From Microcystis aeruginosa NIES-843 (lineage in GTDB: Bacteria > Cyanobacteriota > Cyanobacteriia > Cyanobacteriales > Microcystaceae), in the NCBI RefSeq assembly GCF_000010625.1, contig NC_010296.1:3690001-3722000 (forward strand): DNA of 32,000 nucleotides, written 5' to 3'. The notes under the pieces were generated by a model. It searched no databases and was not told where the DNA came from. It was given only the letters and a program-made list of their open reading frames with translations. A program made the translations under genes and the position numbers. Shown here in pieces: positions 4,130-30,408 of the stretch (the stretch's first letter is position 1; each line of letters begins with the position of its first letter).

Positions 4130-5552
4130 CTTAATTCTAGCAGCCAAAGCTATATCTATATCCCCTAAAGATTGCGCTAGTTCACTTGTCCAGAGAGCTA
4201 ATTGATAATAATAATTACCTGGGAAATTTAGACCAGTTCGAGCAATTATGAGAGCGGATTCTGGTGCGGATTCATCGCGTAAAGCTTTGGCAAAAAAGAA
4301 GGCTTCATCGTTTTTAGTTATCATGTTTTTTGATGCTGCCATCGCTTCATCAATGCGAGCAAGATAGACTAACTTAGTTAGGTATTCTACCACTTGTCCT
4401 GAAGCTAAAGCTAGATTCAAATACTCCTGATCTTTTTCCTGTTTCTCGAAAATTTCTAAGCGAATAGAAGTTAATGTTTGGGCATAATCGGGGATATTAT
4501 CTGACCACATTTCTGAAAAATTAGCCGATTCTCCCCGTAAAATCTTCTCTAAAACTGCATCGTCCCATCCCTGTTGTAAGGCCGCTAAACTCATCTCAAA
4601 ATCGGCACTCCATTCATGCTGCCATTGCTCGATTTTTTCCCTTAAATCTTGCTTTTCTTGGGGATTAAATTCTTTACTTAAAATTGCCCCAGTTAAAACT
4701 CGATCGATTCTGGCACTTAAATCATCATTGACAGCACCGTAATCTTCTAAATTATCCCATTCCTCGATACAGGCGCTAATAATTGCTTCTAAAATAGCGA
4801 TCGCATTATCCGGTTCTCCCTTTTGATAATAATCTTGGGACTCATCCACTAGGGCATAAATTTCATTAGAAATTGGATCTTCTTCGTAGTAATCTTCTTT
4901 GATCGCTCGCAGGGATTGCCGCAGTTCATTACGGACAGTATTACGATAAGCTTTGACATTAATAGTTATCTTCCCTGCCGCTTTATTAACTGGGGTAGCT
5001 GGCAATAAAAACTTATCAATTGTCTCGATAATTTCTGGGTGTTTAGCCACTAAATGATTAAGTAATTTTCTTAATTTACTTTCATCGATTGGTGTCAATA
5101 ACTCCTCTAGGGAGGCTTTTTTAATAATTAATTCTGGTTGACGAGAACAGGTTAATAAAACCGCTACAATATGCTTACACCAACCTTCGTAATCGTAGGG
5201 ACAGTAACAGGAGACATTTTCAAGGTTTTCTTGGTTAAAATCTATGGAAACTCGATAGGGTTTAACCTCACTACCACTCACTAAAGCTTGCAGGTTTTGC
5301 CCCCGTTGCCAAAGAGAAATAACTGCACCGCTATCGTAATAATATTGACCGCGCTGATAGGAAGCATTGGTGCTATTTTGCTGGATAATTTTTTCATTGA
5401 TAGGAGGAATAGTCATAGTCAGAAAAGGAGAGGATTGGGTGATAAAATCTTGTCTGTGTCAAGAAAACTGCCAGCACCGAGACAGACCACTGCATCAGCA
5501 ACCGAGTCAACTTATCTTCAGTTTAGCCTAAATGTGCTATAGTAAAGACAGT

Positions 5553-5813
5553 ATGGAAATTAAAAACATTCCTCTGTCCCAAATTCGTCGTCCTTTACCG
5601 CGACAAACCGATCCCGAAAAAGTTAATCAGTTGATGCAATCGATCGCTGAGGAGGGATTACGAGAACCGATCGATGTTTTGGAGGTGGATGGTAACTACT
5701 ACGGTTTTTCCGGTTGCCATCGCTTTGCCGCTCATCAGCGTCTCGGTAAAGAAACAATTCTCTGTCGAGTTCGTCGCGCCCCTAAATCCGTTTTAGCTAA
5801 ACACATCGCTTAA
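5553..5813 (+). CDS. srxA: Sulfiredoxin (ParB/Srx fold)
   Basis: REPIDVLEVDGNYYGFSGCHRFAAHQRLG contains the F-[GS]-G-C-H-R sulfiredoxin active-site motif. The track start at 5532 is possible, but the MEIKNIPL start at 5553 fits the usual length. Confidence 0.75.
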   Translation: MEIKNIPLSQIRRPLPRQTDPEKVNQLMQSIAEEGLREPIDVLEVDGNYYGFSGCHRFAAHQRLGKETILCRVRRAPKSVLAKHIA

Positions 5814-15342: not shown

Positions 15343-15416
15343 GGGGTCGTAGCTCAGTTGGATAGAGCGAGTGCCTCCTAAGCGCTAGGCCGCCGGTTCG
15401 ATCCCGGCCGATCCCG
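15343..15416 (+). tRNA. tRNA-Arg (anticodon CCU)
   Basis: Manual cloverleaf. Acceptor GGGGTCG/CGATCCC (one G-U). D arm GCTC-AGTTGGATA-GAGC. Anticodon stem AGTGC/GCGCT with loop CTCCTAA. T arm GCCGG-TTCGATC-CCGGC. Discriminator G. CCA not encoded. Confidence 0.9.
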
Positions 15417-17891: not shown

Positions 17892-19211
17892 TTGACATCC
17901 TCACCGCCGTAAACGGACGGTGATTCCCAAACCTCACGATTTAGGTTTCTGCTTCTTTCCCTTGCGGGGTTCCGCACCTGCCTTAACAGATTTACTCTGT
18001 TCTGGTCTTATGGTCGCTCTACAGACTGACACCGCAAGCCCTGCGGCCAAAATATTTTTACTGGCGTTAATATCTCGGTCATGGTGTGTCCCACAGTCTG
18101 GACAATCCCACTCTCGAATATTTAACGGCATCTTTTCGACAATATGCCCGCAATTACTACACCTTTTAGAGCTAGGAAACCATCTATCTATTTCGATGTA
18201 ATTTCTTCCATACCAACGGCATTTATAGGCTAATTGTCGGGTGATTTCTCCCCAGCTTACGTCAGATATTGCCTGAGATAACTTGGGGTTTTTGACCATA
18301 TTCTTGACGGCTAAATTCTCAACCACAATCGTTTGGTTTTCACGAACTAATTGAGTGGTTAGCTTGTGTAAATGGTCTTTCCTGCTATCGGTGATTTGAG
18401 CGTGAATTTTGGCTACTTTGATTTTTGCCTTTTCTCGATTCTTTGAGTCTTTCTGTTTTCTAGAAAGGCTTTTTTGGGCCTTTCGCAGTCTCCGATAATG
18501 CTTTTTAAAATGCTTGGGATTAGATACTTTATCGCCATCGCTGGTAATCACGAGGCTACTAATTCCTAAGTCAATTCCGATGGCTTTATCTGTTACTGGT
18601 AATGGCTTAATCGTTGGGTCATCAAATCTTATTGAGATATGCCAACGTCCAGAAGGATGTAATCTGACTGTTACTGTGCTTGGTTCACAGCTTTCTGGTA
18701 TTTGTCTTGACCATCGAATAGGTAAGGGTTCTGTGCATTTGGCTAAATAGATTTGTTTGTCTTTGAACTTAAAAGCAGATTTGGTAAATTCGGCACTTCC
18801 TCCCTGATGTTTTTTCTTAAAGTTAGGATACTTAGTACGACCAGCAAAGAAATTAGTAAAAGCTGTTTGTAAATGTCTTAAGCCTTGTTGTAAAGGTACA
18901 CAGCTAACTTCATTGAGAAAGTCTAATTCTTCTTGCTTTTTCCACTCGGTCAACATTGAAGAAGTTTCAGTATATCCTACTCTTTCTTGTCTTTCATACC
19001 AAGCTTGTGTTCTGAGATGGAGTGCCTTATTGTAAACCAATCTTACACAGCCCAAAGTGCGCCGCAATAGCGACTCTTGTTCGGGTGTGGGGTAAAATCG
19101 GAACGAGTAGGCTTTTTCCATGTCTCACATTCTAGCATATATTTCGTAAATGTTCTAATATTTAACAGTAAAGCCGTCGTAGAACGACGGGGTTTCAGAC
19201 CCAAATTTTCG
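17892..19211 (-). mobile_element. IS200/IS605-family element carrying only tnpB (no tnpA); boundaries inferred
   Basis: LE side: the hairpin CCGTCGT-TCT-ACGACGG (minus strand) lies about 20 nt inside the point where three copies stop being alike (19211/19212). RE side: imperfect hairpin 17901..17923 with one bulged base. The proposed end after TCAA (17892) is by analogy with IS608 geometry only. Confidence 0.7.
17934..19121 (-). CDS. tnpB: TnpB (OrfB, IS1341-type RNA-guided nuclease), 395 aa
   Basis: N-terminal FRFYPTPEQ. RuvC triad contexts IGIDLG, VVENL and HDRDINA are all present. Zinc finger CSNCG...CPDCG. Confidence 0.9.
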
Positions 19212-20369
19212 ATGAATCATCCTTACTCTTGGATCGAGGATAGCTTAAAAACCCTCCATCGGGCCAATTGGTATCGAAGGGTTAAAACCATTCAAGGCCG
19301 GGGCGGAGCCGTTATAGAATTAGAGGGTCGATCGCTGATTAATTTTGCCAGTAATGATTATCTGGGATTAGCAGCCGATGAAAGAATGATCGCGGCAGCC
19401 ATAGCAGCAACACAACGCTATGGAACTGGAAGCACCGGCTCGCGTCTATTAAGTGGACACCGAGATCTTCATCGAGACTTAGAATTAGCGATCGCATCCT
19501 TTAAAAATAGCGAAGACGCGATCGTTTTTAGTTCGGGATATTTAGCCAATTTGGGGACAATTACCTGTTTAGTGGGGCAGAAAGACCTGATTTTAGGCGA
19601 TCAATACAATCACTCTAGCCTCAAAAATGGAGCCAAGTTAAGCGGTGCCACGGTGAAAGAATACCGGCACAATAGTCTCGAAGACTTAGAAAATCAGTTA
19701 TTAGCCCACCGTCATCACTATCGTCATTGTTTACTGCTCACTGATACAGTGTTTAGTATGGATGGGGATATCTGTCCCCTGGCGGGAATTCTCGCTCTAG
19801 CCGAGATTTATAATTGCATGGTTTTGGTGGATGAGGCCCACGCTACCGGGGTTATGGGGGAAAATGGCACAGGTTGCGTGGAATATTGTGGTTGTCAGGG
19901 ACGGGAATTAATTCAGATGGGAACCCTGAGTAAAGCTTTGGGCAGTTTAGGGGGATATGTGACCGGAAACGCCAAAATTATCGATTTTATCCGCAATCGC
20001 GCCGCCACCTGGATTTATACTACCGGTTTATCCCCCGCCGACACCGCCGCTGCTAGAATGGCTTTAGAGATTATTCGTCTGGAACCGGAACGTCGCCAAC
20101 GCTTACACCAAAATATTAATTTTGTCAAGAGTAAATTAAATAATCTTAATATATTGCCTTCAGAAGCGGCGATTTTATGTTTACCGGTAGCCAATCCGGG
20201 TCAAGCCCTAGAATTATCGCAAAAACTGCTAGAAAAAGGGATTTTTGCCCCCGCCATTCGTCCTCCTACCGTTCCCACCAGTCGTCTGCGGTTTACTGCC
20301 ATGGCCACCCATAGCCTCGCCCATCTAGAGGTTCTTGTCCAGTCTATTGGCGAGTCTTTCCCCACATAG
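19212..20369 (+). CDS. bioF: 8-amino-7-oxononanoate synthase
   Basis: [22 protein letters not shown] and the PLP-lysine context [13 protein letters not shown]. The track ORF begins at 19077, but its first 45 codons are the IS left end. MNHPYSW at 19212 is the plausible start. Confidence 0.85.
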
Positions 20370-20432: not shown

Positions 20433-20514
20433 AACGGTAAAGTGCAGCGGCGGCAGACAACCTTAGCATCACCACTGGGAGCTCCCGACCGTCCGCTCCA
20501 GCGCCTTGTTATGC
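20429..20514 (-). other. attC-like structured recombination-site candidate A (86 bp)
   Basis: Minus strand: GCATAAC-aaggc-GCTGGAGCGGACGG-(32 nt)-CTGCCGCCGCTGCAC-tttacc-GTTCCCC. Starts 10 nt after the stop of the PIN gene. Same segment lengths as element B. Confidence 0.5.
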
Positions 20515-20524
20515 TGCGGCGGGT

Positions 20525-20932
20525 TTAGGGACTCTTGAAAGGATTGACAATTTTCAGCCCATCAATGTCTGAATACCCAAAGTCTTCTGTATAGAGAGTT
20601 TCGACGTTTGCTTCCAAACAAGCAGCAACCACCATCGAATCCCAATGAGACAAACTAAAACGCCTGATCAAGTCCTCAGCACGATTAATCACAGCCCAAG
20701 TTGGCAAAGCTGTGTACCAAACCTGTTGCAAATCTCGAATGTACTGATAGGCTTGCGCTCTGTCATACCCAAATGGCTCAAGTTTGCGGCTTGCCGCTAA
20801 ATATTCGCAGGCAACCTGCCAAATTAAAACTCCCTCTGTCAGATTAGCTACTAGAGAAGCTGCGATTGCCTGCTTACTAGGATAACGCGAATCATTGACG
20901 TAAATTATACTTTGCACGGCTACAACTTGCAT
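20525..20932 (-). CDS. PIN/VapC-like toxin, orphan (no antitoxin gene upstream) and possibly degenerate
   Basis: The C-terminal HWDSMVVAACLEANVETLYTEDFGY fits VapC. At the N-terminus the usual first Asp position reads AVQSIIYVND. The upstream space is occupied by a MITE. Confidence 0.6.
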   Translation of the reverse strand: MQVVAVQSIIYVNDSRYPSKQAIAASLVANLTEGVLIWQVACEYLAASRKLEPFGYDRAQAYQYIRDLQQVWYTALPTWAVINRAEDLIRRFSLSHWDSMVVAACLEANVETLYTEDFGYSDIDGLKIVNPFKSP

Positions 20933-20959
20933 TTTTTACTCAAGGACAATAATATAGTT

Positions 20960-21147
20960 GGTTCTTCGTTACTTGGTATGGTTCGATCAGGGGGCATAAA
21001 TCGGCTAAATCCTTATCTGGCAAGAGACTTAATTGATTAGCTCGTTCTAGATTGAAAACAATTGGCAAAAATCGAAGCAATGTCTTTCTATATAATGGTT
21101 TCATCCCTTATAACTCCCGTCCATTGCATAACACAAACCGAAGAACC
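20960..21147. mobile_element. 188-bp MITE with ISL3-type termini, diverged copy 2, without TSD
   Basis: Same ends (GGTTCTTCGTTACTTGG ... CCGAAGAACC) and roughly 85-90 percent identity to copies 1 and 3. The flanks ATATAGTT and GCATATAT do not match. Confidence 0.8.
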
Positions 21148-21224
21148 GCATATATTTCGTAAATGTTCTAATATTTAACAGTAAAGCCGTCGTAGAACGA
21201 CGGGGTTTCAGACCCAAATTTTCG
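21148..21224 (-). repeat. Solo TnpB-element LE segment, copy 3, truncated by the MITE
   Basis: GCATATATTTCGTAAATGTTCTAATATTTAACAGTAAAGCCGTCGTAGAACGACGGGGTTTCAGACCCAAATTTTCG is identical by eye to 19135..19211. Followed by ATGAAT. Confidence 0.8.
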
Positions 21225-21356
21225 ATGAATGCCCCGCAAGCAACTTCAAGCCACTGTCCTAACCGAGGACTTGCCGCGTAACGCCCGAACTCACCCGCCG
21301 CTATTGATTTTGGCTAATCCAAAAATAATATAACACAGGTCGGCTGCAGTGATTTC

Positions 21357-21665
21357 TTAGACAGTCGCTACTCGATTATTTAACCAACGCTTCAAGGATT
21401 TTTGACTTTCCCCTGATGGTTGGCCAAGAATCAAGTTTTTAGTGCTAATGTCTTCATCTAGTTGATTCCAATGGATTCCACTGCCACCAGCGAGCAAGCG
21501 ATAATCATTGCGCTTCTCAGTTGAGCCATGCAGGAGCCGAGGATACCATGCCAGGGGAACAGATATAGTGCGCCCATCAGACAAATCTACACTGAGTGTG
21601 TCATCTGTGATGGCCAATTGCTGAATAGCCAATGTTTCAAATACTTCATTCGTTAAAAAAGTCAT
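21357..21665 (-). CDS. DUF2442-family protein (102 aa)
   Basis: Pattern ...LSVDLSDGRTISVPLAWYPRL...G.GIHW..LDEDIS is typical of DUF2442. It overlaps the remnant of its usual DUF4160 partner. Confidence 0.65.
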   Translation of the reverse strand: MTFLTNEVFETLAIQQLAITDDTLSVDLSDGRTISVPLAWYPRLLHGSTEKRNDYRLLAGGSGIHWNQLDEDISTKNLILGQPSGESQKSLKRWLNNRVATV

Positions 21666-22010: not shown

Positions 22011-22163
22011 GGCAATAAGAGAAAATCTATCCCACGTCTATCCTACTGCATTTAATCTTGGTTTTGAGGGAATTGGGTAACAGCCGTCAACCCAAGCTAC
22101 AAGATCAGCGTACTGCTACGCAGTGCCTTCGGCATCGCACTACCTCCGCCAAAAGATGAAGCG

Positions 22164-22249
22164 GCATAACGGTAAAGTGCAGCGGCGGCAGATCCCCTCG
22201 AACTCAACACAAGCGGCTTTCGCCCGTCCGCTGCCACGCAGTGTTAGCT
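22164..22249 (-). other. attC-like structured recombination-site candidate B (86 bp)
   Basis: Minus strand: AGCTAAC-actgc-GTGGCAGCGGACGG-(32 nt)-CTGCCGCCGCTGCAC-tttacc-GTTATGC. The inner arms pair over 12 bp with two single-base bulges. Starts 20 nt after the protease stop. Confidence 0.55.
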
Positions 22250-22269
22250 GGCTGGCAAGAGCAACCAAC

Positions 22270-22698
22270 CTATCCCGAAACAGGAGCTTTGGGGCTAACT
22301 GCAAACTCTAGCTGTGAACGGTAGAAGCAGACATCAAACTCCATAAAGAAGTTCACCTGCCCCAAGATAAGCGGCACGTTGGTAGCTTGTGTCCAGGCAA
22401 ATACCAGTTGCACGGGATCAAATTGCCCAACGACCGCTTGAGCAAGTACGACACGCGCCTCATATTGAGCCAAATTTCCTGTCAAACTCAGTGCTGTTGT
22501 TTGCCGATCCCATTCGTACCCAAGCTCGACTCCTACTGAATATGGTAGTACGTTTACACTTGCTCCAGTGTCCAATAGACCGGATGCTGTGACAGAAGCT
22601 TGTCTGTAAAACAGAGTAAAAGGCAAATGCGGACGAAAACTGGCTTCACCTAATGCCGCGTCACCAGAAACAAATGGATATCGCTCAGCGTTACCCAT
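22270..22698 (-). CDS. Retropepsin-like (clan AA) aspartic protease, single-lobe, 142 aa
   Basis: LLDTGASVNVL (D-T-G-A active-site motif) and the C-terminal PLILGQVNFF motif. Confidence 0.75.
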   Translation of the reverse strand: MGNAERYPFVSGDAALGEASFRPHLPFTLFYRQASVTASGLLDTGASVNVLPYSVGVELGYEWDRQTTALSLTGNLAQYEARVVLAQAVVGQFDPVQLVFAWTQATNVPLILGQVNFFMEFDVCFYRSQLEFAVSPKAPVSG

Positions 22699-22906
22699 GG
22701 TCTTGAGCTTTGGTAGCCTGTAGCACTTTTAACATCGTATCTGCTGCCTCAACCGCATCATAGGGCGACCACACTGGGTAAGCCTGACCCTGTTTAATCA
22801 AATCTGTCTCCTGTTGGGCTAGTTCTGAAATCAGGAGCTGCATGATATAAAACTTATCTGAACGACCCAGTTCTCTCAATGCCGAGATTAATTCTGATGA
22901 AACCAT
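22691..22906 (-). CDS. Small protein (71 aa) translationally coupled to the protease gene
   Basis: Its stop overlaps the protease start by 8 nt (ATGGGTAA). No domain recognised. Confidence 0.6.
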   Translation of the reverse strand: MVSSELISALRELGRSDKFYIMQLLISELAQQETDLIKQGQAYPVWSPYDAVEAADTMLKVLQATKAQDHG

Positions 22907-22936
22907 ATAAAATGAAATGCTCTTGTCAAGCTAGGT

Positions 22937-23368
22937 TTACCCTTTTATTCTAATCGCCCCAACCCGATGCAGTGACGTGCTCGCTGAGCATACACGATAC
23001 AATATCGGCGATCGCACCGTTAAGTCTCTCATTCTAATTTTGTCTTCTTCAATAACTGTAAAGTGTCCATACCAGTCATCCCGCAATGAGATAACCTTGG
23101 CAACTTTCTCAGCGACTACAGATCCAGAAGGTACTCTTATTCTAAACAAAATAATACCAACGCTGGCCGGCAACCTTGAACGAAAGGCGAGTTCTCCAAA
23201 ATCTTGATCAAATGTCAAGAGAATACGATTTTCTGCCTGGGCGCGACTTAAAACTTCCCGGTCCGAGATTCCGGGGGATTCCACCCTAATCCACAGGACA
23301 TCATGGACCTTTTGTCGTAGGGCTTCAACCGCATCAAGGGGGAAATTTTCGTTCGCTAGAAAACGCAT
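22937..23368 (-). CDS. DUF5615-family PIN-like protein with an aberrant C-terminal extension; partner gene missing
   Basis: MRFLANENFP...ILLTFDQDFGEL is the DUF5615 pattern. The last ~30 aa read into a repeat containing GCGATCGC. The upstream space where a DUF433 gene usually sits is occupied by the IS5-like element. Confidence 0.6.
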   Translation of the reverse strand: MRFLANENFPLDAVEALRQKVHDVLWIRVESPGISDREVLSRAQAENRILLTFDQDFGELAFRSRLPASVGIILFRIRVPSGSVVAEKVAKVISLRDDWYGHFTVIEEDKIRMRDLTVRSPILYRVCSASTSLHRVGAIRIKG

Positions 23369-23392
23369 CAGTTAAGCAGGAATAGCATAGAC

Positions 23393-24340
23393 TTTAGATC
23401 TCTTGCAAAAGTAATCAAGATATATCCTTTTGTCGGTAACGAAGTTCGTAATTGTAGATACCAGCAATCAAATTCAATCTCAGACCAAATCGCCGTCTGC
23501 GATTTCTGTATCTTGATGAAAGTATCCGAAATATTTTGAGACGACGATGAATATGTTCTATAACTATGCGCCGTTGTGATAACTGACGATTGTCTTTTTT
23601 TTGCTCTTTACTTAGTTTTTCTTTTTTCTTTTTTTATGAGGAATTTGACTGTTTTGATGGATTTTCTGAATTCCTTGATAGCCTTTATCCCCTAATATTT
23701 CTATTCCTTATTTAACCTTATTTTGCTCTCTTTCCACAGTCGAAAATCATGGACTCTTCCTTTCTCACAACGGACACAGATTACCTGCTCGCTTTTTTGG
23801 TCGCAACGCGCTCGCTGCGCGAGATCGGCAACGACTTGCGACTTTAATGTGTGGTATCCCTGCTTGCCACTATAGCATGATTTCTGTTTTTTTTGGGTCT
23901 TTCTATCTCCTGTTCTGACACATCCACCACTATTACTTCTATTTCACTATTACTTTCTAATAGGGCTTTTTTTCCCAGTAGATTAAACAGACCTGATTTG
24001 ATGAGAATATTCTCGACTTTCCTAACAATTCTATACGCCGTTGATTCGTTAATACCCCAACTATTTCCCAGATGAAAATAGGTGCGATATTCTCGCCAAT
24101 ATTCTAGTGTTATTAGTAGTTGGTCTTCCGTACTCAATTTGCTAGGTCTACTGTCTTTTTTTGCCAAACTTTTTCTGCCTTTAGGACTGTTACCATATCC
24201 TTAAATGTATCTGGATACACGCCACACAAGCGTTTGAACTCTGTTGGCTTTAAAGTTTTTACTTGTTCGTAAGTCATCTTTCAATCTTAACTCTTGGACT
24301 ATTTTATCCTATTTTGTCTAGACTTATGCAAGAGATCTAA
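23393..24340 (-). mobile_element. Degenerate IS5-family-like insertion sequence (about 0.95 kb)
   Basis: TIRs: TTAGATCTCTTGCAAAAGT (left) and TTAGATCTCTTGCATAAGT (right, reverse complement). The transposase is readable only in pieces in different frames: MTYEQVKTLKPTEFKRLCGVYPDTFKDMV; LSTEDQLLITLEYWREYRTYFHLG (track ORF 23844..24167); GDKGYQGIQKIH...QRRIVIEHIHRRLKIFRIL. Confidence 0.7.
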
Positions 24341-24519
24341 TGTGCATGGTGCGTTCCCCCAAAAATCGATCGGTGAAGCAGTGGGAGCCACATTAGGGAA
24401 CGCACCCTACAAGATCGGCGATCGCACTGTTTGCTTGCTTTAATTCATAACAAAAATTAACACACGAAAACCAGAAGAGCCAGAATCTTTGTAAAATGGG
24501 TTGAAATATTGCAATAGAA

Positions 24520-25005
24520 TCATTCTCCCGCAATTGTCAAAACCTTTCTGTAGAGTGTTTCGCTAATTCGGAATTCTGCTTTTAAGATTAGCTGAGCAAC
24601 AATAGGTTTAATATTCATAATCAATTCTTTTTGCTTGGCTTCGAGTAAAACGCCCAATATTCCAGTAATATTTAGCCCAAGAGATCGTGCAACTTTGCGT
24701 CCTTTTCTTTCATCCAAAATTAATATATCTGCGCCTAATTATAGCGCTAAAATAATCCCTTCTGATTCTCCTCGGTCTAATTTATTGAGTAGTTGATTAA
24801 CTTGGTTTTGCTGGGTGACGGGCCGTGTTTCTATCCAAGATAAGGTCATGATTTCAATCGTGCCAGGTACGGCGTAGCCTAAACTCGCCATTTCGTCATA
24901 AACGGCTTGAGGAATGATAATTGTTCCATAGAGTTGATGCAAAAGGGTTAACTGGTTAACGGCGGCTAGGTTGGTAATGGGTGAGGTGTCACTCACGACG
25001 ATCAT
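24520..25005 (-). pseudogene. DUF3368-family (PIN-like) toxin gene with one in-frame TAA
   Basis: Track ORFs 24739..25005 and 24520..24717 are in the same frame. Read through the stop at 24736..24738, the sequence is ...ESEGIILAL*LGADILILDERKGRKVARSLGL..., a continuous DUF3368-like sequence. Confidence 0.7.
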
Positions 25006-25247
25006 AGTCTGCCTAGTTTTTGTAAGGTTTGGATATCTTCTTCTAATTCTTCAAGGTCATAATGGACACAAATCTCTCTTAGATTAAGTTCGTGTTGAAA
25101 TTGGAGGAGGTTCATGCCTGCAAGATGACGGGCTTTGCCAATGCTGATTTTGTCTTGTTTAAAGAGCATGATGGCGATTTCTAGTTTTAGCTCGTCTTCG
25201 GAGAGTCCTGATGCGGTCAGTATGTCATTAGGAATAACTACGCTCAT
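25002..25247 (-). CDS. UPF0175-family antitoxin
   Basis: EIAIMLFKQDKISIGKARHLAGMNLLQFQHEL pattern. 4-nt ATGA overlap with the DUF3368 gene. Confidence 0.7.
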   Translation of the reverse strand: MSVVIPNDILTASGLSEDELKLEIAIMLFKQDKISIGKARHLAGMNLLQFQHELNLREICVHYDLEELEEDIQTLQKLGRL

Positions 25248-25459: not shown

Positions 25460-26043
25460 GGAGACAGCTATTAGGGATCGGATTTGAGTTTTCAGTTCAC
25501 TGTTTCCTCACACCAGAAGTCTGACGGAGTAGTGGCTTAGATGTGTAATTAATTTTGCTTAGGTACTTATCTATATCCTTACTTTTAATCATGATACCAA
25601 TACTCACCCCCTGCTGAATGTCAGACACATTCTCATACTTTCTAGCGGAATTATCGCCATTAGCCGGTAGTAGTAGTAAGGAAACCCAACACACAATAAT
25701 TGTTATGATTTCTGGTAATGATTTGGTAGTAGTGGCGTAGCCCTCTTGCTTATCTGGTATGAATTGTGTAAAATATTTATGAATAAAAATAATTGGAACC
25801 CGCTCAGTCTTTAAACCTCTAGCTTGATCATGACTTTTCTGATAAATATCTTTTTCTGGCTCCTGTCTGGCTTACTCAAATATCAGTCTAGCACCGAACA
25901 AAGTACCCCCTTCACCTCTATTCCCCTGTCCTAATTGTGGTTCTCACCATACTATCAAGAATGGTTCTATTCATAATGGAAAACCCAAACGTCAAGGTAA
26001 AGAGTGTGGTCGTCAGTTGGTGATCAATCCCACTAATAAAACC

Positions 26044-26230
26044 GGTTCTTCGTTACTTGGTATGGTTCGATAGGGGGTCATAAATCGACTAAATCCTTAT
26101 CTGGTAAGAGACTTAATTGATTAGTTCGCTCTAGATCAAAAATAATTGACAAAAATCGCTAAATGCCTTTCTATATAAGGGTTCCATCCCTTATAACCCC
26201 CGTCCATTGCATAACAATTACCGAAGAGCC
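26044..26230. mobile_element. 187-bp MITE with ISL3-type termini, copy 3, inside IS1
   Basis: Identical to 2434..2620. Perfect 8-bp TSD ATAAAACC (26036..26043 and 26231..26238). Confidence 0.9.
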
Positions 26231-29754: not shown

Positions 29755-30039
29755 ATGATAGTCAAATTCAAGTCCGAAGAGACTAAGCTCATTTTCGAGG
29801 GGTTTCAGTCTCGTCACTATCCCCCTGATATTCAATCGGTCGCTCTACGAAAACTGCTAATCCTTGCAGCGGCGTTATCGATCAATGATCTGCGTGTCCC
29901 ACCGGGTAATCGGTTGGAGAAGTTGCAGGGCGATCGTCAGGGCCAGTACAGCATCCGTATTAATGACCAATGGAGAATTTGCTTCATTTGGACTGATGAA
30001 GGCAATGCTGATCAGGTAGAGATAGTGGACTACCACTAA
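29755..30039 (+). CDS. higB: HigB-type (RelE/ParE superfamily) toxin
   Basis: 94 aa. LRVPPGNRLEKLQGDRQGQYSIRINDQWRICF pattern. Toxin-first order with a HigA gene 15 nt downstream. Confidence 0.8.
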   Translation: MIVKFKSEETKLIFEGFQSRHYPPDIQSVALRKLLILAAALSINDLRVPPGNRLEKLQGDRQGQYSIRINDQWRICFIWTDEGNADQVEIVDYH

Positions 30040-30054
30040 AATTAGCTAAATGCA

Positions 30055-30408
30055 ATGAACAGCAACACTTCGACACATTTCGACAGGCTCAATGTAAAAG
30101 CTCAGTTCCACCGTTTGCCAAATATCCATCCCGGTGAAATCCTCAAGTTAGATTTTCTGGAACCGCTCAATATTACCCCCTACAGACTGAGCAAAGATTT
30201 AAGCGTAGCTCAAACTCGTATCGGTGAGATTTTAGCTGGTAAGCGTAGTATCACTGCGGACACAGCTTTGCGTCTGTCACGATATTTTGGTAACAGTCCT
30301 CAGTTTTGGCTGAATCTTCAAACAGACTACGATCTCCGTCAAGCTCAGACAAAGAATGCCGAAGTTTATAACCAAATTCCTATTACTCCATTTACAGATT
30401 TAGCTTAG
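30055..30408 (+). CDS. higA: HigA-type antitoxin (XRE HTH)
   Basis: IHPGEILKLDFLEPLNITPYRLSKDLSVAQTRIGEILAGKRSITADTALRLSRYFGNSPQFWLNLQ. Confidence 0.8.
   Translation: MNSNTSTHFDRLNVKAQFHRLPNIHPGEILKLDFLEPLNITPYRLSKDLSVAQTRIGEILAGKRSITADTALRLSRYFGNSPQFWLNLQTDYDLRQAQTKNAEVYNQIPITPFTDLA

Follow-up and report, generated by a model that had tools for sequence, protein, structure and literature searches.

An overlapping gene pair of Microcystis aeruginosa NIES-843, coding for a small protein and a retropepsin-like protease, as a mobile copy of the PDC-M52 candidate family

Organization of the gene pair

In this work, we describe two overlapping genes, here called A and B, which lie within a 32,000-nucleotide stretch of the Microcystis aeruginosa NIES-843 genome (contig NC_010296.1, positions 3,690,001 to 3,722,000 of the forward strand). 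The whole of this stretch is referred to as the window, and coordinates are counted from its first letter. Gene A codes for a small protein of 71 amino acids, gene B for a protein of 142 with the signature of an aspartic protease. An earlier note on the same DNA, made from the letters alone, had singled out the pair as resembling a toxin-antitoxin (TA) or small defence system. Judging from the sequence comparisons reported below, the locus holds a copy of a two-gene module, of the PDC-M52 family, which is autonomous and spreads horizontally. The features of the locus and of its surroundings are collected in Table 1; loci compared in other genomes are denoted by numbers preceded by L.

Table 1. 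Features of the A/B locus and of the surrounding island (window coordinates)
Feature	Position	Strand	Basis or remark
Gene A (71 aa; PDC-M52A; presumed antitoxin-like partner)	22691..22906	minus	Open reading frame list, PADLOC
Gene B (142 aa; PDC-M52B; presumed effector)	22270..22698	minus	Open reading frame list, Pfam, PADLOC
8-nt overlap of A stop and B start, ATGGGTAA	22691..22698	minus	Sequence
Codons of loop Y43-P-V-W-S-P-Y-D-A51 of A	22754..22780	minus	Most conserved segment; candidate protease-binding motif
Codons of catalytic motif D43-T-G-A46 of B	22561..22572	minus	Asp invariant in 55 family members
Codons of I111-L-G-Q114 of B	22357..22368	minus	Counterpart of retropepsin I-I-G-R-N/D motif
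921-bp cassette block (pair, 175 bp downstream, 109 bp upstream)	22095..23015		99.2% identity to L001
Microcystis repeat D3, 79 nt ("attC-like element B"), downstream of B	22168..22246		Repeat search
Second D3 copy, 73% identical	20433-20511		Downstream of PIN-like minus-strand gene
PIN, weak match	20525-20932		Pfam
DUF2442	21357-21665		Pfam
DUF5615 (143 aa)	22937-23368	minus	Pfam
COG2405-type PIN/DUF3368 toxin, two open reading frames	24739-25005 and 24520-24717	minus	Pfam
UPF0175 antitoxin-like gene	25002-25247	minus	Pfam

Both open reading frames (ORFs), as the earlier note had them, are present in the ORF list and in the sequence itself, and share 8 nucleotides, which read ttacccat on the forward strand and ATGGGTAA on the coding strand; the reading frame of B is +1 relative to that of A. 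An overlap of this length, of the ATGnnTAA/TAG/TGA type, recurs in 62 of 77 resolved A/B loci, while overlaps of 14 and 4 nucleotides are found in 6 and 3 of them, respectively, and a small positive gap in only 3. In all 77, B starts with ATG. A conserved 8-nucleotide stop/start overlap of this kind couples the translation of the two genes, so that the two proteins would be made together, and the junction can be described as one of translational coupling.

A programmed frameshift joining A to B, similar to that of Gag-Pro, was considered and discarded: the junction contains no conserved slippery or shift-prone motif, and B keeps its ATG throughout. Coupling by termination and reinitiation appears to be the simpler reading. 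In consensus scans for a promoter and a terminator proper to the pair, candidate sites were no more numerous than in shuffled sequences; the sole -10 candidate overlaps the start codon of A.

The protease encoded by gene B

The LLDTGAS and ILGQ signatures noticed earlier in the 142-residue protein are found at L41-L-D43-T-G-A-S47 and I111-L-G-Q114, and the Pfam Asp_protease_2 model matches B above its gathering threshold (30.2 bits against 24.3, E-value 7.8e-7); the gag-asp_proteas model scored under its own. To describe conservation, we used an alignment (A1) of 55 diverse family members, 30-68% identical to B, which starts after Met1, its numbering being thus one lower than that of the full-length protein used here. 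The catalytic aspartate (D43, or D42 in the alignment) is invariant in all 55 sequences, and so are P52, G60, W102 and F117. Within the ILGQ motif, whose consensus is PLILGQxNFF, the glycine is nearly invariant; a C-terminal motif, NFFxEFDVCF, is specific to the B family.

An AlphaFold monomer model, built from the same 55 sequences, has a mean confidence (predicted local distance difference test, pLDDT) of 95.5. Its best Foldseek match in PDB is the Rickettsia protease APRc (5c9f, E-value 3.6e-5, template-modelling score 0.65-0.69), followed by the HTLV-1, EIAV, HIV, SIV and FIV proteases and by Ddi1. All 17 matches at an E-value of 1e-3 or better are retropepsins, either APRc or retroviral, Ddi1 domains falling just above the cut-off. 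By sequence, a single PDB match was obtained, HTLV-1 protease, with an E-value of 0.19 and confined to the surroundings of the active site. By motif and predicted fold, B is thus a single-lobe retropepsin-like aspartic protease. The invariant aspartate and other residues, the conserved motifs and the retropepsin fold make it look like an active enzyme rather than a pseudoprotease; by analogy with other retropepsins, it should be active only as a homodimer. The predicted isoelectric point (pI) of the protein is acidic, 4.6.

Comparison with known retropepsins shows both the relationship and the peculiarities of B. APRc (RC1339 of Rickettsia conorii, PDB 5c9f/5c9b) is likewise a single-lobe bacterial retropepsin and aligns with the B model over 135 columns, but the sequence identity is only 12-15%. 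APRc itself corresponds to the soluble part of a protein which is anchored in the membrane and processes itself, and it is not known to have a small partner gene; B, in contrast, is a stand-alone protein of 142 residues always paired with A. With the retroviral proteases (HIV-1, HTLV-1, EIAV, FIV) and the Ddi1 domains, B shares the fold and the D-T/S-G-A and I-L-G-x motifs, to which it adds an N-terminal strand (residues ~4-7), a helix (~13-19) and the C-terminal NFFxEFDVCF motif. Unlike these proteins, it is not part of a polyprotein, and its partner is a separate small gene instead of Gag or ubiquitin-like domains. The small retropepsins linked to archaeal type III CRISPR-Cas systems (Asp_prot, e.g. 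Saci_1895), stand-alone proteins of about 100 residues tied to an immune system (PMC3973734), provide by their description a precedent for B; they are archaeal, and no A-like partner has been reported for them.

The small protein encoded by gene A

No Pfam or NCBIfam family matches A, in agreement with the earlier statement that the 71-residue protein carries no recognisable domain. A Foldseek search of its model against PDB and BFVD returned nothing under an E-value of 0.7, and a profile search of PDB only one chance-level match (E-value 0.81). The profile of A collects 2152 homologue clusters, all of which bear the name "hypothetical" and lack a Pfam domain. The protein (7.9 kDa) is as acidic as B (predicted pI 4.6), and its predicted structure (pLDDT 79) features three helices, spanning residues 3-11, 15-36 and 48-69.

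The most conserved segment of A is the loop Y43-P-V-W-S-P-Y-D-A51. Across 45 sequences, Y43, W46, S47, P48, Y49, D50 and A51 never vary. The loop is invariant within cyanobacteria, and its W-S-P core is kept across phyla, where P48 is invariant and Y43, W46 and S47 are conserved in at least 90% of the sequences. Residues 37-47 are non-helical and are modelled with the lowest confidence inside the fold. A segment so conserved, and yet so poorly defined in the model, would be typical of a motif which becomes ordered on a partner, and we regard the loop as a candidate protease-binding motif.

The same loop suggests a different relationship between the two proteins. Its aromatic-proline start resembles the type 1 cleavage sites of retroviral proteases, the sequence Y-P-V/I-W fitting the P1-P1'-P2' positions of such sites, as in the SQNY/PIVQ junction of HIV MA/CA. 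A might be a substrate or pro-peptide, cleaved by B, for instance between Y43 and P44, with release of an active N- or C-terminal helical peptide having a signalling, toxic or regulatory action; A and B would in this case be a precursor and the protease dedicated to its maturation. The location of this stretch, the best conserved of the protein, in an exposed loop of low model confidence agrees with such a role, and strict pairing and coupled translation suit an enzyme and its substrate as well as an enzyme and its inhibitor. However, P44 is replaced by glutamate or serine in several clades in which W-S-P is conserved, so that the Y-P bond is unlikely to be an essential scissile bond. Furthermore, A has no signal peptide, no cysteine- or glycine-rich core and no known feature of peptide precursors, its two halves are equally conserved, and processing would leave the location of the pair in a TA/defence island unexplained. 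We consider this explanation quite unlikely.

Four of 28 A proteins give matches to the Pfam family Unstab_antitox, all below threshold (the highest score being 18.3 bits, for a cut-off of 23.3, with an E-value of 0.0019). The best of them covers residues 13-38, in the region of helix 2. This resemblance should be taken as a hint, and not as membership of the family.

Pairing, distribution and selection

To evaluate how strictly the two genes are associated, genomes were scanned for B with an alignment of 11 sequences, keeping one genome per species, and A was then sought by tblastn at the 80 resulting loci and in six further Microcystis contigs. A homologue of A was found directly upstream of B in all 86, i.e. 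in each of the 80 species genomes and of the six additional contigs. The association, which the earlier note had supposed and which would have been expected to break down elsewhere if the two genes were chance neighbours, is also kept in distant relatives of B, at 33-34% identity, among them a tandem double pair, as well as on a plasmid of Rippkaea and one of Nostoc, both cyanobacteria.

Most of the 80 loci belong to Cyanobacteriota. The others raise the distribution to at least four phyla, with Chloroflexota, Acidobacteriota and Planctomycetota, and include a complete Caldilineaceae chromosome (Chloroflexota), a Blastocatellia contig and two Planctomycetota. Three matches in proteobacterial metagenome-assembled genomes (L028, L033 and L035), 78-79% identical to cyanobacterial versions, may derive from binning contamination, and Proteobacteria were for this reason left out of the count. 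As a whole, homologues of B form 3431 clusters at 90% identity and 879 at 50%.

Both genes are real, and not chance ORFs, and are under strong purifying selection. The ratio of nonsynonymous to synonymous substitution rates (dN/dS), calculated by the Nei-Gojobori method on 24 ungapped pairs, is about 0.11 for A and for B, and synonymous sites are near saturation in the same 24 pairs, the proportion of synonymous differences (pS) being about 0.68. This indicates that the high amino acid identity of the two proteins, 80-90% across cyanobacterial orders, reflects constraint, and not only recent transfer. The divergences of A and B are correlated (r = 0.92), which shows that A and B are passed on together.

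Some genomes contain more than one pair. Two diverged pairs lie on one contig in L013 (4787-6370, B copies about 50% identical) and in L057 (1988-5423, about 66%), a double pair is found in L087 (2126-3429), and one Nostoc (UHCC 0252) features two separate loci (L023 and L043). The vicinity of diverged pairs suggests that a pair was duplicated, or that insertion took place more than once at one site.

A single homologue, P0255, is a protein of 187 residues in which an A-like N-terminus (residues 1 to ~64) is in frame with a B-like protease lacking its first ~15 residues. Such a fusion could in principle serve as Rosetta-stone evidence of interaction. Being a singleton from a metagenome contig of 1,094 bp, and either a real fusion or an assembly artefact, it was not used. 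The other long homologues of B look like products of frameshift or read-through artefacts.

Correspondence to the PDC-M52 candidate family

A search against PADLOC-DB v2.0.0 connects both genes to a family already catalogued. B matches the PDC-M52B model (PDLC04692) with an E-value of 9.4e-50, residues 1-137 being aligned with positions 1-137 of a profile of 139; the match of A to PDC-M52A (PDLC04691) is partial (E-value 1.2e-5, residues 34-69 against positions 47-84 of 86). The pair also shows the gene order of the family, A followed by B, adjacent and on the same strand. PDC-M52 corresponds to cassette CAS_00170, composed of FAM_01284>>FAM_00696, to which the supplement of Payne et al. (bioRxiv 10.1101/2024.01.29.577857) gives a count of 55 and the annotation 'Assign as candidate'. 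Candidates were nominated in that work through guilt-by-embedding in BREX, DISARM, type I restriction-modification (RM) and Hma systems.

The window pair and PDC-M52 share protein families, gene order and adjacency, and we noticed no structural difference between them; the only reservation concerns the partial match of A to its model. A relative of the pair is found within a BREX system: at the Pseudanabaena locus L031/L032, the genes PglZ-A-B-BrxD-BrxHI follow each other on one strand, PglZ being recognized with an E-value of 1e-236. The Pseudanabaena pair is thus embedded in BREX, a context of the type that led to the nomination of PDC-M52.

The supplementary entry for PDC-M52 carries no functional description; the family is a bioinformatic candidate, with no published domains, mechanism or phenotype. 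Our literature search found no paper mentioning it, and a keyword search combining retropepsin or aspartyl protease with toxin-antitoxin found no description of the A/B pair. No aspartic protease is listed in the broad TA survey of Makarova 2009 (PMC2701414), nor in the Synechocystis TA inventory of Kopfmann 2016 (PMC4963859). The earlier remark that no established TA family of this type is known therefore holds for these surveys, but the pair itself is not new, being already catalogued as PDC-M52. The window pair belongs to a known candidate family; what would be new, if confirmed, is the mechanism proposed below.

Genomic context of the pair

Within Microcystis, the pair moves together with its immediate flanks. 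The 921-bp block which contains it is 99.2% identical to positions 5684-6604 of L001 (M. aeruginosa NIES-2549, CP011304.1), and the similarity ends on both sides, which indicates that the A/B block recombines as one unit. Ten Microcystis contigs coding for an identical A protein differ in the TA-like pairs which flank it: DUF433-DUF5615, UPF0175-DUF3368, Phd-PIN, DUF2442, BrnT, HicA and unnamed small pairs. The island formed by these genes adjoins the same aminotransferase and DUF6464 genes, and an RDD gene where the contig reaches it, in L091, L092, L095, L096, L001 and the window. The PIN, DUF2442, DUF5615 and DUF3368 neighbours, from which the earlier note had derived a TA- or defence-like setting, were all recovered by a Pfam scan of the window. 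The setting is borne out both by this shuffling of TA-like pairs and by the Pseudanabaena case.

On a broader scale, no gene accompanies the pair. The 142 genes immediately flanking it in 75 loci match 137 Pfam families, none of which occurs in more than 3 loci; there is thus neither a third partner, a conserved third gene having been sought among these 142 without success, nor a housekeeping operon. This goes against the possibility, envisaged in the earlier note, that the protease belongs to a housekeeping family with unrelated neighbours. Defence proteins, such as type I S subunits, MADS components and AriA-like ATPases, are a minority of the neighbours.

Possible function of the pair

Many traits of the module are those of type II TA systems, such as VapBC, RelBE, DUF433-PIN/DUF5615 and UPF0175-DUF3368. 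As in these systems, two small co-directional genes, the smaller first, form a compact bicistronic unit with a conserved stop/start overlap; the unit is mobile and autonomous, can be present more than once and in variable contexts, and lies in Microcystis within a shuffled TA island. The N-terminal helices of A also bear the weak resemblance to Unstab_antitox mentioned above. The difference lies in the putative toxin, a retropepsin-like protease, of which no example is found in the TA surveys checked. Neither protein could be assigned to an established TA family, since A matches only Unstab_antitox, below threshold, and B only Asp_protease_2; no DNA-binding domain was found in A by searches of Pfam, NCBIfam, PDB and BFVD.

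On these grounds, we consider it somewhat probable that A and B form a TA-like or abortive-infection-like module, B being the effector and A its restraint. A would bind B, probably through its invariant, flexible Y-P-V-W-S-P-Y-D-A loop, and hold it in an inactive state, acting as a pseudo-substrate or preventing B from dimerising. If A were lost or titrated away, whether through stress, phage infection or loss of the element, B would be set free and would cleave host or phage proteins, stopping growth or infection. In its most specific form, the proposal is that PDC-M52 would be the first TA or abortive-infection family with a retropepsin-like effector, silenced by a 71-residue pseudo-substrate or anti-dimerisation partner via the Y-P-V-W-S-P-Y-D loop, and freed on phage infection or element loss to cleave specific host or phage proteins. 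This full version is advanced tentatively, and we would lean slightly against it.

Several observations weigh against assigning the pair to this class. As for its setting, most immediate neighbours, among the 142 genes examined, are ordinary, non-defence genes, plasmid copies of the module are rare, most being chromosomal, and no match to it was found in 50,697 phage genomes, IMG/VR contigs and PHROGs. The level of amino acid identity across cyanobacterial orders is unusually high for genes involved in conflicts. As for the proteins, A is acidic and has no detectable DNA-binding domain, unlike most type II antitoxins, and B is acidic as well, whereas many toxins are basic. The Y-P start of the loop is not universal, residue 44 being glutamate or serine in some clades; binding of A to B, and the part given to the loop, are at this stage a conjecture. 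Lastly, the 145 PDCs, PDC-M52 included, are presented by their authors as untested candidates (Payne et al., 10.1101/2024.01.29.577857).

Some of these observations could be accommodated by a module having no part in conflicts, B being a regulatory or quality-control protease and A its adaptor or chaperone, encoded together in a small accessory operon. Very high conservation under strong purifying selection, the ordinary metabolic or structural nature of most flanking genes, the absence from phages and the mostly chromosomal location would all be in line with this possibility, and Ddi1-type retropepsins, involved in housekeeping proteolysis, are among the fold matches of B. However, an operon of this kind does not account for the lack of a conserved genomic context of any sort, nor for a patchy distribution over four phyla at 57-69% inter-phylum identity, which suggests horizontal transfer. 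Multiple or tandem copies in one genome (L013, L057, L087, and L023 with L043), the cassette-like behaviour of the Microcystis pair within a hypervariable TA island, and the case embedded in BREX also speak against it, and we judge it unlikely. A phage origin, or a role as an anti-defence gene, was rejected, no match to the module having been found in the phage genomes, IMG/VR contigs and PHROGs searched.

Should the TA-like or abortive-infection-like function be confirmed, a soluble dimeric retropepsin would represent a new enzymatic class among toxin and defence effectors, and A would be a natural, genetically encoded protein inhibitor, or a dedicated substrate, of a retropepsin. This would bear on how retroviral and Ddi1 proteases evolved and on the design of protease inhibitors. 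The family is compact (71 + 142 residues), extremely well conserved and widely distributed among cyanobacteria that form blooms or live in symbiosis (Microcystis, Nostoc, Moorena and Leptolyngbya, for example), so that a function for A and B would annotate thousands of pairs now labelled "hypothetical protein / aspartyl protease family protein". The present analysis gives the first description at the domain level of PDC-M52, an anonymous candidate both in PADLOC and in its source paper.

Repeats at the borders of the cassette

The earlier note had placed an attC-like element, called B, directly beside the pair. The repeat, here named D3, is indeed present downstream of gene B, and a second copy follows the PIN-like gene; the window contains two copies of an exact core of 21 nucleotides, GGTAAAGTGCAGCGGCGGCAG, which, of the loci fetched, only those of Microcystis share. 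The likeness of D3 to attC was not supported: D3 folds no better than shuffled sequences (z of -0.17 for the copy downstream of B and -0.01 for the other one), and a Pfam scan of window ORFs detected no integron integrase (IntI tyrosine recombinase), the only recombinases found being insertion sequence (IS) transposases (IS630, IS30, OrfB_IS605, an IS1 fragment and HTH_Tnp_4).

A second repeat, about 75 nucleotides long, forms a hairpin with an 11-bp stem, GGTGCGTTCCC / GGGAACGCACC, the z-score of its DNA fold ranging from -1.3 to -3.1. Two copies enclose the cassette in M. aeruginosa CP011304.1, at positions 5520-5590 and 6604-6675 of L001, and the repeat occurs once in the window, at 24339-24411, beside the end of an IS. 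This repeat may mark the borders of cassettes in the Microcystis TA island.

Taken together, these repeats might evoke an integron, the pair being a promoterless gene cassette captured at an attC site. The movement of the pair as a discrete block of 921 bp, with repeats at or near cassette borders (D3 downstream of B and of the PIN-like gene, the hairpin repeat in L001), would be compatible with such a mechanism. On the other hand, IS transposases, and no IntI, were found among the window ORFs scanned, D3 does not fold better than shuffled sequences and is restricted to Microcystis, although mobility of the pair extends to many phyla which lack D3, and the hairpin repeat contains no recognisable R'/R'' core of attC. 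The integron reading was rejected as very improbable.

Other features of the island and its surroundings

The TA-like genes next to the pair show signs of rearrangement. The DUF5615 ORF located upstream of the cassette codes for 143 residues, of which only 1-108 match the Pfam model. Since the block of 99% identity begins at 23015, its last ~35 codons lie within the upstream flank of the cassette. The 143-residue form adjoins the cassette in several Microcystis strains, and a separate DUF5615 of 121 residues occurs elsewhere in the same islands; the C-terminus of the longer form looks like a product of recombination.

An IS-like insertion of about 960 bp (23386-24348), delimited by inverted repeats of 27 nucleotides (23386-23412 and 24322-24348) and containing degenerate HTH_Tnp_4 ORFs, sits 18 nucleotides upstream of the start of this DUF5615 gene. 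In L093 and L098, an intact DUF433 antitoxin gene is found immediately upstream; by comparison, the DUF5615 of the window appears to have been deprived of such a partner. Further upstream, the PIN/DUF3368 toxin gene (24520-25005), which follows the UPF0175 gene and is split into two ORFs, is probably frameshifted, and the same split is found in L094.

Two direct repeats were also observed in the region. One, of 83 nucleotides, is present in exact copies at 19135-19217, at the end of an OrfB_IS605 (TnpB-like) gene (17934-19121), and at 21148-21230, as an orphan within the TA island; the repeat probably represents the end of an IS200/IS605-family element. The other, of about 205 nucleotides, is found within the island at 20940-21147 and 26024-26230, with 86-88% identity, and may be an element similar to miniature inverted-repeat transposable elements.

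Two more features were noted in the surroundings of the island. A tRNA gene (15343-15416, Rfam, 62 bits) is located some 5 kb away from where the variable island begins. Outside the island, a gene for a HigB-like toxin (29755-30039, plus strand, E-value 9.5e-19) is followed by an ORF of 117 codons (30055-30408), and the two (29755-30408) may constitute another TA pair.

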